A stretch of DNA of 64,000 nt from Escherichia phage ECML-134: the sequence record JX128259; one strand, given 5' to 3'. Shown here piece by piece: positions 4,419 to 5,821 of the stretch. Under the pieces are notes generated by a model. The model saw only the letters and a program-made list of their open reading frames with translations. It was not told where the DNA came from and made no database searches. Position numbers and translations under genes: made by a program. Numbering within the stretch: the first letter of the stretch is position 1; each line of letters begins with the position of its first letter.

Positions 4419-4494
4419 TGGTCGAGGCAGTAGGGATCGAACCTACGACCCAGGACTTAGAAGGTCCTTGCTCTTCCTTCTGAGCTATGCCTCG
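4419..4494 (-). tRNA. tRNA-Arg (anticodon TCT)
   Basis: manual cloverleaf: acceptor CGAGGCA/TGCCTCG, loop CTTCTAA, T-loop TTCGATC, encoded CCA. Confidence 0.8.
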
Positions 4495-4498
4495 TATT

Positions 4499-4573
4499 TG
4501 GCGGACGTGATAGGATTCGAACCTATAACCAATCGCTTAACAGGCGATCGCTCTGCCATTGAGCTACACATCC
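4499..4573 (-). tRNA. tRNA-Asn (anticodon GTT)
   Basis: manual cloverleaf: acceptor GGATGTG/CACGTCC (one G-U), loop CTGTTAA, T-loop TTCGAAT, CCA. Confidence 0.75.
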
Positions 4574-4577
4574 AAAT

Positions 4578-4664
4578 TGGTGGGGAGTGGTGGAGTCGAA
4601 CCACCCGAGTCGCAATGACAATGGATTTACAGTCCACACCGCTACCTCTACGGGATAACTCCCC
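4578..4664 (-). tRNA. tRNA-Tyr (anticodon GTA), long variable arm
   Basis: manual cloverleaf: acceptor GGGGAGT/ACTCCCC, loop CTGTAAA, long variable arm, CCA. Confidence 0.7.
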
Positions 4665-4673
4665 AAATTAATT

Positions 4674-4748
4674 TGGTGGCCCTGGGTGGAATTGAACCAC
4701 CATCTGGCGATTATGAGTCGCTTGCTTGAACCTTCCAGCTACAGGGCC
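4674..4748 (-). tRNA. tRNA with CAT anticodon (Ile2-type or Met)
   Basis: manual cloverleaf: acceptor GGCCCTG/CAGGGCC, loop CTCATAA, CCA. Confidence 0.75.
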
Positions 4749-4749
4749 T

Positions 4750-4825
4750 TGGTGCTGATTGACGGAATCGAACCGCCGACCTTCTCATTACAAGTGAGTT
4801 GCTCTACCTACTGAGCTAAATCAGC
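4750..4825 (-). tRNA. tRNA-Thr (anticodon TGT)
   Basis: manual cloverleaf: acceptor GCTGATT/AATCAGC, loop CTTGTAA, T-loop TTCGATT, CCA. Confidence 0.8.
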
Positions 4826-4830
4826 AAAAC

Positions 4831-4920
4831 TGGCGGAGGCGATAGGATTTGAACCTATGAGTCGCCGGAGCGACTTCCGGTTTTCAAGACCGGTGCATTA
4901 AACCACTCTGCCACGCCTCC
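4831..4920 (-). tRNA. tRNA-Ser (anticodon TGA), long variable arm
   Basis: manual cloverleaf: acceptor GGAGGCG/CGCCTCC, loop CTTGAAA, long variable arm, CCA. Confidence 0.8.
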
Positions 4921-4926
4921 AAATAT

Positions 4927-5577
4927 TTATATATTGTTAATTTGATTTAGAATTCTTTTTGCTTGAGTATGACTTACGCCAATATGCTTAGCATATTTAG
5001 ATAATTCACCACGTTTAGAAAAATCATATAATTTAGAAATTTCTATTCTTCTTTTTCTTTCATCCGCAGAAACTTTTGCTTCGTTTGCTTTTGCTATTTT
5101 ACGTTTAGCTTCTTGAGAATGAGTTTTACCAGCAAAGCCATTCTTCATTAATCCATTTGAAGACCATCCTTTTAATTTTCCGTTAGAATGTGCCTTTTTA
5201 ACACCCAATGAAATTAATTCGCGTTGCTGGTCTGTCATAGGATAATTATTTATATGATCCCATCCACCTTCACCGCCAAGTTTTAAATTATACACATCTG
5301 GTCTATTTAAAAACTCTTCTGTAACAATATTTTTCTCGGCTTTAAGCATAGATTCTTTATCATCAAAATACTCTAATATTTCTTTAGAAAAATTTTCTAT
5401 GCCATACTTATCTTGGGCTCTTTTTAATAATTTACCAGAACCCATATATCCATCATCTAAATTTTCGGTAGAATGCACACCAATATAAATTTTATTATTA
5501 ATTTTATTTGTTATTTTATAAAGATAAAAATGCATATCAGTCCCTAATAAAGAACTGAGCGTCTCACGACGAGTCAT
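4927..5577 (-). CDS. segB: GIY-YIG homing endonuclease (SegB-like) inside the tRNA cluster
   Basis: 216 aa; N-terminal GIY-YIG module (YLYKITNKINNKIYIGVHS, NxxxGG); position between tRNA sub-clusters. Confidence 0.8.
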   Translation of the reverse strand: MTRRETLSSLLGTDMHFYLYKITNKINNKIYIGVHSTENLDDGYMGSGKLLKRAQDKYGIENFSKEILEYFDDKESMLKAEKNIVTEEFLNRPDVYNLKLGGEGGWDHINNYPMTDQQRELISLGVKKAHSNGKLKGWSSNGLMKNGFAGKTHSQEAKRKIAKANEAKVSADERKRRIEISKLYDFSKRGELSKYAKHIGVSHTQAKRILNQINNI

Positions 5578-5581
5578 AAAT

Positions 5582-5655
5582 TGGAGCGGATAATGAGAAT
5601 CGAACTCACATCATCAGATTGGAAGTCTGAGGTAATACCATTATACGATATCCGC
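5582..5655 (-). tRNA. tRNA-Gly (anticodon TCC)
   Basis: manual cloverleaf: acceptor GCGGATA/TATCCGC, loop CTTCCAA, CCA. Confidence 0.8.
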
Positions 5656-5660
5656 AAATT

Positions 5661-5747
5661 TGGTGCGAGAAGTGGGACTCGAACCCACAAGGAAATCATT
5701 CCGCAGCATTTTAAGTGCTGTGCCTTTACCAATTTGACCATTCTCGC
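5661..5747 (-). tRNA. tRNA-Leu (anticodon TAA), long variable arm
   Basis: manual cloverleaf: acceptor GCGAGAA/TTCTCGC, loop CTTAAAA, long variable arm, CCA. Confidence 0.8.
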
Positions 5748-5748
5748 G

Positions 5749-5821
5749 CTGGGAATAAAGGACTCGAACCTTTGCATCCTGGAATCAAAATCCAGTGCCT
5801 TACCAACTTGGCTAATTCCCA
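5749..5821 (-). tRNA. tRNA-Gln (anticodon TTG), CCA not encoded
   Basis: manual cloverleaf: acceptor TGGGAAT/ATTCCCA, loop TTTTGAT; 3' end abuts tRNA-Leu. Confidence 0.75.

Follow-up and report, generated by a model that had tools for sequence, protein, structure and literature searches.

Introduction

The tRNA cluster of bacteriophage T4 comprises eight tRNA genes together with rnaC, rnaD, and segB. It contains tRNA-Pro and lacks tRNA-Tyr and tRNA-Asn, a point on which the T4 annotation agrees with an earlier sequence-only reading of the DNA considered here. In phages T2L, RB1, and RB3, a CAU-Tyr-Asn-Arg block of tRNA genes was described in 2008, and the preferred site of T4 SegB, a 27-bp tRNA T-arm site, is located within the tRNA-Asn of such T2-type phages (Brok-Volchanskaya et al., PMC2330249). 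Homing of T4 SegB has been shown experimentally to delete the Met/Tyr/Asn/Arg block (PMC2330249); T4 therefore represents the derived state with respect to Tyr and Asn. In T6, a tRNA-Tyr has been detected by northern blotting and counteracts the Septu defense, which T4, lacking tRNA-Tyr, cannot escape (PMC13096335). Since this 2026 work, the locus considered here has become relevant to the dosage of anti-defense tRNAs. C-terminal variants of SegB, tRNA-Pro, and tRNA-Asn are not discussed in that study, and a literature search on "SegB-like" returned nothing.

Nine tRNA genes in a T-even stable-RNA operon

The DNA analyzed here is a continuous 64-kb stretch (the window), which matches bases 64001-128000 of ON506924 (Escherichia phage vB_EcoM_SCS4, Tequatrovirus) at 100%; none of the nine tRNAs described below is annotated in that record. 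ARAGORN, run on the whole window, identified exactly nine tRNA genes, all on the minus strand at 4419-5821. Their coordinates and anticodons are the same as those of the sequence-only reading, and the program returned neither other isotypes nor a tRNA-Pro that the reading had missed. Rfam model RF00005 matched eight of the nine at 59 to 74 bits (gathering score, 29), while the long-arm tRNA-Tyr gave only a sub-threshold match to the tRNA-Sec clan. No tRNA-Pro and no further tRNA of any kind was found in the window (ARAGORN) or in the 103 kb that make up the rest of this genome.

The array is ordered Gln, Leu, Gly, an open reading frame (ORF), Ser, Thr, CAU, Tyr, Asn, and Arg, and the ARAGORN anticodons are, in this order, ttg, taa, tcc, tga, tgt, cat, gta, gtt, and tct. 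Five of the genes are orthologous to those of T4, at identities of 89 to 100%. These are tRNA-Gln(UUG) (5748-5821; Rfam, 67.4 bits), tRNA-Leu(UAA) (5661-5747) and tRNA-Gly(UCC) (5582-5655), both 100% identical to T4, tRNA-Ser(UGA) (4831-4920; 98.9% over 87 nt), and tRNA-Thr(UGU) (4750-4825; 96%). The tRNA-Gln gene, in which the 3' CCA is not encoded, has 89% identity to T4, with all eight differences lying within the anticodon arm, and 100% identity to phage RB18 and to a nuclease-less array, L006. The remaining four genes are of a different type. The CAU tRNA (4674-4748), tRNA-Asn(GUU) (4499-4573), and tRNA-Arg(UCU) (4419-4494) are 100% identical to their T2 counterparts, whereas the CAU tRNA has only 63% identity to T4 tRNA-Ile, and tRNA-Arg only 67% to both T4 and T6. 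Between the CAU and Asn genes, tRNA-Tyr(GUA), with its long variable arm (4578-4664), has 97.7% identity to T2 and 98.9% to T6, from which it differs by one base in the anticodon stem, the variable arm being identical.

The tRNA with the CAU anticodon had been left as "Ile/Met". The Escherichia coli gene that it matches best, with 81.6% identity along its full length, is annotated as tRNA-Ile in 5424 of 5426 genomes. Alignment to E. coli tRNA-Ile(CAU) shows an identical anticodon arm and an acceptor stem that is off by a single pair (7-66). The acceptor stem contains C4-G69 and C5-G68, as in E. coli tRNA-Ile(CAU), and these pairs are reportedly determinants for TilS. In tRNAs of the Ile2 type, TilS converts the CAU anticodon to lysidine, after which AUA is read. 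Judged by these sequence features, the gene encodes a predicted Ile2-type, AUA-reading tRNA. The Ile half of the earlier assignment thus stands in this more specific form, while the E. coli match, acceptor stem, and anticodon arm speak against an elongator tRNA-Met.

The surroundings of the array are those of the T4 cluster, which has the same position, strand, and flanking genes. The T-even operon lies between a side with e.x, rnaC, and rnaD and a side with trna.2 to trna.4, ip, and 57B, with all genes on one strand; here, rnaC and rnaD are located downstream of the array and a Trna.2 homologue upstream, at 5919-6206. The synteny agrees with that of T4, T2, RB68, and RB18, and the tightly packed genes follow the conserved core order Gln-Leu-Gly ... 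Ser-Thr-Ile ... Arg, as judged by comparison with six relatives. The species 1 stable RNA gene rnaC (4153-4291, minus strand) matches T4 rnaC at 98.6% over 139 nt by blastn, and the species 2 stable RNA gene rnaD (4298-4417, minus strand) matches T4 rnaD at 86% over 118 nt. We observed that rnaD directly follows tRNA-Arg; the annotation of RB68 also contains rnaD. The end of the RNA operon is marked by an intrinsic-terminator-like hairpin of 10 bp, 7 of them G-C, followed by a T run (4070-4102, minus strand). The array is very probably a standard T-even stable-RNA operon of the T2/RB51 type and not of the T4 type, its Pro interval having been taken by a nuclease cassette. By analogy with T4, whose precursor processing is covered in the literature (PMC2330249), a single polycistronic minus-strand transcript would run from upstream of tRNA-Gln to the terminator past rnaC, and processing of this precursor by host enzymes would yield the nine tRNAs along with the two small RNAs.

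A common haplotype among T-even phages

Haplotype frequencies were estimated from four BLAST counts, each aimed at one feature, across the phage records of GenBank. The Tyr-Asn pair was found in 394 phage records, T4-type segB in 122, the Gly-Pro-Ser junction in 439, and the C-terminal module of the array nuclease in 54. The presence of both Tyr and Asn, which the sequence-only reading had implied to be odd against T4, is thus what most sequenced T-even phages show. Comparison with the tRNA sets of relatives, which that reading had proposed as a check, showed that RB51, RB68, and about 50 more phages share the nine-tRNA layout. RB51, RB68, and others are already annotated with the identical arrangement, RB18 is annotated with the same order, and these roughly 50 Tequatrovirus records (among them slur07, HY01, KIT03, PhiZZ30, and ESh25) agree with the array in both tRNA content and order; 53 records are collinear with the array over 2 kb. 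Records of this group also have the array nuclease gene in the Gly-Ser gap, at 97 to 98.6% nucleotide identity over 2 kb. They are not identical in every respect, since in RB51, RB68, RB18, and T2 an additional ORF of 351 nt, missing from the array phage, separates Arg from rnaD, and RB18 has an extra tRNA-His. Few loci were recovered from IMG/VR, where matching an exact 44-nt stretch of tRNA-Gly gave only 2 and a scan with the Trna.2 protein only 7.

The nine-tRNA set is therefore a common T-even haplotype that has been annotated before. Its value as a discovery is low and its worth mainly corrective, in that T4 should not serve as the norm for tRNA content. Having lost Tyr and Asn to its own segB, T4 is the less typical of the two.

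The array has kept what T4 SegB is known to act upon. The published consensus GGTTCRANTCC-N11-CCAR occurs in six copies in the window, all of them within the array, with zero expected by chance. Like the block of T2L, RB1, and RB3, the array holds the preferred T4 SegB site in tRNA-Asn (4497-4523, GGTTCGAATCCTATCACGTCCGCCAAA), and this copy has all five preferred-site bases (G6, A16, G18, A26, and A27). Because this site is retained, the array phage would be a recipient for homing of T4-type segB.

The nuclease gene between tRNA-Gly and tRNA-Ser

The gap between tRNA-Gly and tRNA-Ser is filled by an intact ORF, predicted to encode a free-standing SegB-family homing endonuclease of the GIY-YIG type with 202 amino acids (4927-5535, minus strand; Pfam, PHROG, and BLASTP). 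Its product matches GIY-YIG (PF01541) at 26.1 bits (Pfam cutoff, 22.6) and phrog_314, homing endonuclease, at an E value of 1e-53. A mechanically called ORF extends over 4927-5577 (216 amino acids, ATG at 5577); this start was rejected, as it has no Shine-Dalgarno sequence, homologues begin at the equivalent of M15, and phage KP13MC5-5 has GTG upstream.

The two halves of the protein differ in their relationship to T4 SegB. The catalytic half (approximately residues 1 to 96) has 95% protein identity to T4 SegB, and at the nucleotide level the catalytic module is 97.8% identical to T4 segB over 275 nt (97 to 100% when T4 and T6 are both considered). After approximately codon 97 this nucleotide identity is lost, falling to 40 to 60%, and BLASTP gave no significant alignment to T4 SegB past approximately residue 117; the two proteins, of 202 and 221 amino acids, are unrelated in this part. 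The C-terminal half of the array nuclease contains a NUMOD3-like motif, with a match just below the cutoff (20.2 versus 20.4 bits), and a predicted terminal helix-turn-helix. A PDB sequence search for similar solved structures gave no meaningful match, and single-sequence AlphaFold modeling (mean pLDDT, 53.5) was confident only for approximately residues 160 to 200, where the helices are compatible with a helix-turn-helix. The I-TevI endonuclease is built on the same plan, with an N-terminal GIY-YIG domain, a NUMOD3-like linker, and a C-terminal helix-turn-helix, but is intron encoded, whereas the array gene is free-standing. This modular plan of I-TevI is also taken up in the discussion of PMC2330249.

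Full-length collinear homologues of the array nuclease are found in Jiaodavirus phages of Klebsiella, namely, CPT_Mineola_142 of Mineola, which has a third variant of the linker, and an unannotated ORF of KP13MC5-5 (202 amino acids, 76.6% full-length identity). In these phages the gene has the same leader and lies immediately downstream of tRNA-Gly, as in the array phage, but it is followed by tRNA-Pro, which is kept and shares sequence with the ORF at the 3' end of the latter.

The gene is preceded by a conserved cassette leader (5536-5581, minus strand), with 97% identity to the leader of T6 segB and 88 to 93% identity to those of the Jiaodavirus homologues. Within it, the Shine-Dalgarno sequence AGGGA forms part of the 3' arm of a 9-bp hairpin (5537-5558; fold energy, -14.1 kcal/mol; z, -2.2). 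The array nuclease gene and segB of T4 and T6 are alike in lying within a tRNA array directly past a tRNA CCA followed by ATTTA, with the ribosome-binding site in a hairpin; sequestering of the Shine-Dalgarno sequence by a hairpin has also been described for T4 segB (PMC2330249, PMC2988022). No late or middle promoter was evident beside the gene, and production of the nuclease may be very low because of this and of the sequestered Shine-Dalgarno sequence. The leader is part of the cassette, since it also precedes T6 segB, where it follows tRNA-Tyr, and the Jiaodavirus genes, where tRNA-Pro is intact farther downstream. As a specific claim, derivation of the 42-nt leader ACTCGTCGTGAGACGCTCAGTT from the 5' half of a tRNA-Pro (CTCCGTGTAGCTCAGTT) was rejected.

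Taken at the level of sequence, the gene is a modular SegB-family variant and not an orthologue of T4 segB. The sequence-only reading, in which the cluster was "split by segB," was right about the family of the catalytic half, but the unrelated C-terminal half and the Gly-Ser site do not support orthology to the T4 gene. Likewise, the names "segB" and "truncated SegB-like" used for this ORF in GenBank mask its modular makeup and its different site.

Two other readings of the locus draw on the same comparisons. In one, a T4-type cluster has gained Tyr and Asn, lost Pro, and been interrupted by an orthologue of T4 segB. The near identity of several genes to T4 (Gly and Leu, 100%; Ser, 99%; Thr, 96%), the rnaC, rnaD, and trna.2 flanks common to T4, the nearly identical N-terminal half of the ORF, and the RB18 annotation, which labels the gene segB with "location conserved in T4," are all in its favor. 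However, segB is immediately upstream of tRNA-Arg in T4 and T6 (between Ile and Arg in T4, and after Ile or Tyr in the pair), not between Gly and Ser, and T4 has Ile-segB-Arg where the array phage has a CAU-Tyr-Asn-Arg block whose CAU and Arg alleles are 63% and 67% identical to those of T4 and identical to those of T2. Together with the unrelated C-terminal half, the existence of nuclease-less arrays of 10 to 11 tRNAs, and the block deletion caused by T4 SegB homing (PMC2330249), this makes a modified T4-type cluster very unlikely. In the other reading, the ORF is a decaying, inactive remnant of an old invasion. This is in keeping with its shorter length relative to T4 SegB, the lack of a visible dedicated promoter, the label "truncated SegB-like protein" in the RB51 and RB68 annotation, and a clearly decayed relative in T2. 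The latter phage keeps tRNA-Pro and lacks tRNA-Thr, in whose place is the decayed ORF T2_137, which has no GIY-YIG core and is related to the C-terminal module of the array nuclease. Nevertheless, the array ORF is intact and exactly of the length of its Jiaodavirus homologue, and it keeps the GIY-YIG domain including Y17 and G19, whose mutation was used to abolish T6 SegB activity (PMC13096335). The C-terminal module is conserved at 95% identity or more in 54 phage records and at 99% or more in 51, and "truncated" stems from comparison to a nonhomologous C terminus, no sequence having been lost. We therefore consider a fossil gene unlikely.

Replacement of the tRNA-Pro interval

The absence of tRNA-Pro was placed in context by arrays without the nuclease. 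These contain 10 (L006) or 11 (L005) tRNAs in the order Gln, Leu, Gly, Pro, Ser, Thr, CAU, Tyr, Asn, (His), and Arg. Alignment showed the array to be an L006-type 10-tRNA array in which the 86-nt tRNA-Pro interval has been cleanly swapped for a 661-nt cassette. The left junction of the cassette is the CCA of tRNA-Gly followed by ATTTA. Compared with L006, the flanks are identical through the Gly side and near-identical from Ser on, where the substitutions are scattered and lie mainly in Ser and Asn; overall, the identity extends for approximately 250 nt, with near identity beyond. The cassette is thus present or absent between near-identical alleles, being absent in L006, L005, T4, and T2. The loss of tRNA-Pro is not a separate oddity, because the nuclease cassette occupies the Pro interval.

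The cassette is predicted to consist of the leader, the catalytic module, and a DNA-binding module of its own. In the mechanism that we propose, the nuclease would cleave alleles that lack its gene, within tRNA-Pro or beside it, and the cassette would be copied in during repair, with loss of tRNA-Pro. It is conceivable, and we put this forward tentatively, that the nuclease is a natural specificity-swapped SegB whose new DNA-binding module aims cleavage at the tRNA-Pro locus. If so, two elements of the SegB family would compete inside one 1.5-kb tRNA array, and mixed infections would lead to reciprocal erasure, T4-type segB removing Tyr and Asn and the array element removing Pro. Like T6 SegB, the nuclease could then also cause neighboring tRNA genes, the anti-Septu tRNA-Tyr among them, to undergo segmental amplification. 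The presence of the nuclease and the absence of tRNA-Pro are imperfectly complementary across phages. In T6, both Pro and Ser are absent and so is the array-type nuclease, and the Jiaodavirus phages have the homologue together with Pro. Because of these two counterexamples, the loss of Pro may have been a one-off deletion at insertion, not a general effect of homing.

The recurrence of Pro loss, with T6 having lost the gene without an array-type nuclease, would also be expected if the loss were adaptive, for instance through a shift away from CCA or evasion of a host factor directed against tRNA-Pro. However, CCA is still the top Pro codon in the ORFs of the window (16.7 per 1000; 43% of all codons for Pro), the limits of the replaced interval coincide exactly with those of the cassette between identical or near-identical flanks, and the Gly-Pro-Ser junction is kept in 439 records, all of which make an adaptive loss extremely improbable. 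Replacement by the nuclease cassette accounts for the interval, and the locus is a compact natural example of how homing endonucleases shape the set of tRNA genes.

Codon use and predicted function of the tRNAs

Codons were counted in 60 ORFs of the window and expressed per 1000 codons. AUA was used at 16.3, AGA at 11.9, UUA at 31.3, and GGA at 25.1 per 1000, and Tyr and Asn made up 4.27% and 5.95% of residues, respectively. Seven of the tRNAs would read codons heavily used by this AT-rich phage (CAA, UUA, GGA, UCA, ACA, AUA, and AGA), and tRNA-Tyr and tRNA-Asn would add capacity for two heavily used amino acids. By analogy with the near-identical T6 gene, which acts against Septu, tRNA-Tyr probably buffers the phage against host nucleases that cleave tRNA-Tyr. 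Extrapolating from T6, tRNA-Asn may serve as a defense buffer as well.

None of the nine tRNAs has a suppressor anticodon (CTA, TTA, or TCA), and the remainder of the genome adds no tRNA. This bears out the view of the sequence-only reading that the amber codon in hoc is not self-suppressed for want of a CTA anticodon. The amber itself, also noted in that reading, is a TGG-to-TAG change at hoc codon 306 (window positions 44050-44052) and is private to this isolate.

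Nine tRNA genes in a T-even stable-RNA operon

A search of the whole 64-kb window with ARAGORN found nine tRNA genes and none further, all on the minus strand between positions 4419 and 5821. In transcription order these are tRNA-Gln(ttg) (5748-5821), tRNA-Leu(taa) (5661-5747), tRNA-Gly(tcc) (5582-5655), tRNA-Ser(tga) (4831-4920), tRNA-Thr(tgt) (4750-4825), a tRNA with a CAT anticodon (4674-4748), tRNA-Tyr(gta) (4578-4664), tRNA-Asn(gtt) (4499-4573), and tRNA-Arg(tct) (4419-4494). The coordinates, isotypes, and order claimed in the sequence-only reading were all right, as was its description of T4, whose order (Gln, Leu, Gly, Pro, Ser, Thr, Ile, segB, Arg) comprises eight tRNAs with Pro and without Tyr and Asn. 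Eight of the nine genes were matched by the Rfam tRNA model at 59 to 74 bits (gathering score, 29), while the long-arm tRNA-Tyr was left after Rfam clan competition with a sub-threshold tRNA-Sec match only. This tRNA-Tyr is 98.9% identical to that of phage T6, which has been detected experimentally (PMC13096335); one anticodon-stem base differs, and the variable arm is identical.

Over the 2-kb region the sequence matches Escherichia phage vB_EcoM_SCS4 (ON506924.1; Tequatrovirus) at 100% identity, and bases 64001-128000 of that record correspond to the window. Scanning the rest of the SCS4 genome for tRNAs found zero more, so the whole phage has nine tRNAs, without tRNA-Pro and without a suppressor. 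Annotation of ON506924.1 includes no tRNA, rnaC, or rnaD, and nearly all CDS are labeled "hypothetical protein"; the nine tRNAs are therefore absent from public annotation. Downstream of tRNA-Arg lie rnaD (4298-4417; 86% to T4) and rnaC (4153-4291; 98.6% to T4), the latter followed by a strong terminator-like hairpin (4079-4102), and a Trna.2 homologue lies upstream of the array. The locus is a canonical T-even stable-RNA operon. Four minus-strand ORFs flanking it (2862-3425, 3551-4024, 6838-7089, and 7157-7447) share the N-terminus MK(T/S)(Y/F)xEF...EA, similar to the N-terminal capsid-targeting region of T4 internal proteins; the downstream pair are paralogues of each other, assigned to phrog_2280, and occupy the place of the T4 e.x genes.

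The tRNA set is a known haplotype

The tRNA set of the window is not unusual; as a haplotype of the T-even tRNA region it is known and already annotated. The annotations of RB68 and RB51 list precisely these nine tRNAs with the same ORF between them, and RB18 differs only in having tRNA-His in addition. In 53 GenBank phage records, 80% or more of the 2-kb region is collinear with the window (97-100% identity); in several of these, ESh25, ESh31, PhiZZ30, and NiC89, the collinear stretch is one unbroken piece. Diagnostic segments were counted in a phage set of 50,697 records: the Tyr-Asn pair (at least 80% covered) occurs in 394, an intact Gly-Pro-Ser junction in 439, the T4-type segB C-terminal half in 122, and the C-terminal half of the window nuclease (at least 95% amino-acid identity) in 54. 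Given 394 Tyr-Asn records versus 122 with T4-type segB, possession of Tyr and Asn is the common state, and their lack in T4 is the minority one. Met(CAU)-Tyr-Asn-Arg is present in T2L, RB1, and RB3, and homing in T4 x T2L crosses swaps about 1250 bp with tRNA-Met, Tyr, Asn, and Arg for the T4 version; Tyr and Asn are thus missing in T4 because T4 segB homing exchanges that block (PMC2330249). The CAU, Asn, and Arg genes of T2 are 100% identical to those of the window; the Ile and Arg genes of T4 are only 63-67% identical to the window CAU and Arg genes.

In a distant T4-like contig (L008; IMGVR_UViG_2974739009_000001) whose array otherwise holds Met and Arg only, ARAGORN reported a 94-nt "tRNA-Stop" with anticodon tta (6580-6673), which may be a spurious call or may be a tRNA resembling an ochre suppressor.

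A SegB-family cassette takes the place of tRNA-Pro

Two IMG/VR contigs carry arrays without a nuclease gene: L006 has Gln, Leu, Gly, Pro, Ser, Thr, CAU, Tyr, Asn, and Arg, and L005 has this set plus His. In global alignment the window is identical to L006 through Gly and near-identical from Ser on, with scattered substitutions, chiefly in Ser and Asn. The single substantial difference is that, from the Gly CCA-ATTTA to the first base of Ser, an 86-nt interval with tRNA-Pro in L006, T4, and T2 is replaced in the window by 661 nt with the nuclease gene; the absence of Pro is therefore a direct consequence of the cassette, not an independent feature. CCA is still the top Pro codon (16.7 per 1000 in 60 window ORFs), so Pro was lost without codon adaptation.

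An intact ORF with a GIY-YIG domain (4927-5577) fills the Gly-Ser gap. By BLASTP its product is 82% identical to T4 SegB over 117 residues, with the identity nearly all in the first ~97, and beyond this match no significant alignment between the two proteins was found. At the nucleotide level the gene is 97.8% identical to T4 segB over 275 nt. A five-way nucleotide alignment placed its 42-nt leader and catalytic half at 97-100% to T6 segB, whereas the T4 segB leader differs; past the codons for ...GGWDHIN, identity to T4 and T6 segB falls to only 40-60%. T6 segB is positioned between Tyr and Arg, unlike the window gene. The statement that the array is split by segB thus stands in that the gene is SegB-family and shares its catalytic half with T4, but not as to the C-terminal half and insertion site; the intervening ORF is segB in the family sense only. 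The nine-tRNA cluster is confirmed as an observation, and the earlier interpretation is partly supported. The one point left unstated in the literature found is that this putative Pro-replacing nuclease gene is modular and sits at an insertion site of its own.

By contrast, Klebsiella Jiaodavirus KP13MC5-5 (OP617748) has an intact 202-aa ORF, unannotated in GenBank (L017 2728-3336), that is collinear over its full length with the window nuclease at 76.6% protein identity. It has the same leader, a C-terminal half at 80-94% nucleotide identity, and a position between tRNA-Gly and tRNA-Pro, its last 10 nt overlapping the 5' end of tRNA-Pro. A homologue in the corresponding position in phage Mineola carries yet another linker, the third variant. 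Homologues begin at the equivalent of M15 of the 4927-5577 ORF, KP13MC5-5 has GTG at the position of the upstream ATG, and an AGGGA Shine-Dalgarno sequence lies 5 nt before M15, with none before the first ATG; the gene was therefore placed at 4927-5535 (202 aa). Y17 and G19, which were mutated to inactivate T6 SegB (PMC13096335), are present, and 51 records conserve the C-terminal module at 99% or more, so the gene looks functional rather than "truncated."

T2 lacks tRNA-Thr and has at its place a 133-aa ORF, T2_137 (L012 3309-3710), a decayed member of the C-terminal family of the window nuclease (phrog_16521) that has lost the GIY-YIG core and retains VSHTQA[KR], the motif of the terminal helix-turn-helix. 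It is a second instance in which nuclease insertion and tRNA loss coincide. Elsewhere in the window, 40683-40825 and 45722-45810 (plus strand, near the segE position) match the 5' part of T4 segB weakly (69-71%, nucleotide) and are presumably other seg-type GIY-YIG genes.

Proposed homing and control of the nuclease

The cassette is present in some arrays and absent from others whose flanks are identical or nearly so, its GIY-YIG catalytic module is intact, and in both the window and T6 the left junction lies directly after the tRNA CCA and then ATTTA; the T4 SegB cut has been reported right after CCAR (PMC2330249). The predicted nuclease would cut nuclease-less alleles in or near tRNA-Pro, after which recombinational repair would copy the cassette into the cut allele, and its different C-terminal module would give it a target unlike that of T4 SegB. 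The published T4 SegB consensus, GGTTCRANTCC-N11-CCAR, has six exact matches in the window array, all in tRNA T-arms, where none is expected by chance. The Asn copy (4497-4523) has G6, A16, G18, A26, and A27, the bases that set the preferred site apart from the Ser site. This preferred site would make the window phage a recipient for T4-type segB, and the phage may be a donor of its own cassette.

Against the T4/T2/T6 allele (L001 4458-4531), tRNA-Gln has eight differences, all in the anticodon arm, the remainder being identical: double compensatory changes swap three of the five stem pairs, and loop positions 32 and 38 have T instead of C. The window allele also occurs in L006 and RB18. A similar two-allele pattern was seen for tRNA-Asn, which is 84% identical to its L006 counterpart; its anticodon-stem and T-stem changes would alter the preferred SegB site.

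A 9-bp hairpin (5537-5558) holds the Shine-Dalgarno sequence of the nuclease gene in its 3' arm. The leader has a predicted folding energy of -14.1 kcal/mol (z, -2.2), and the KP13MC5-5 leader has the same fold, its two base changes preserving the pairs; in the T4 segB leader the hairpin is more stable (-19.4 kcal/mol; z, -6.7). Sequestration of the ribosome-binding site has been proposed as a control for T4 segB and other T4 homing endonucleases (PMC2330249, PMC2988022), and by analogy the window nuclease may be controlled through its hidden Shine-Dalgarno sequence.

Roles of the tRNAs

Seven of the nine tRNAs read A-ending codons, used in 60 window ORFs at 31.3 (UUA), 25.1 (GGA), 24.0 (CAA), 20.2 (UCA), 20.2 (ACA), 16.3 (AUA), and 11.9 (AGA) per 1000 codons. 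All are rare or minor codons in E. coli, and supplementation is the classical explanation for such tRNAs. The best E. coli match of the CAU tRNA is annotated as tRNA-Ile in 5424 of 5426 genomes, and the two genes share the acceptor stem, C4-G69 and C5-G68 included, as well as the whole of the anticodon arm. These two pairs are TilS determinants. By sequence the CAU tRNA is of the Ile2 type.

Tyr and Asn fall outside the A-ending-codon rule; in the window ORFs they account for 4.27% and 5.95% of residues, respectively, shares that exceed E. coli proteome values. Septu EcB88 cuts tRNA-Tyr within its variable arm, and plating is restored when additional T6 tRNA-Tyr is supplied; T4, without a tRNA-Tyr gene, is unable to escape Septu, and T2 is resistant (PMC13096335). 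With T6 and Septu providing the direct evidence, tRNA-Tyr probably has, by analogy, a second role here against host defense. Speculatively, tRNA-Asn, and likewise the RB18 tRNA-His, could act as a defense buffer. Colicin E5 cleaves four tRNAs with GUN anticodons, among them those for Tyr, Asn, and His.

An amber codon in hoc

The hoc gene (43837-44967, minus strand) carries an in-frame TGG-to-TAG change at codon 306 (44050-44052), upstream of the C-terminal region. As had been claimed, this amber is not self-suppressed, since the tRNA scan found no suppressor tRNA in the window or the rest of the genome. The surrounding 81 nt occur in 596 phage records, with 100% identity only in SCS4, so the stop is either private to the isolate or a sequencing error. 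In the GenBank record hoc is annotated as two separate CDS. T4 can do without Hoc.
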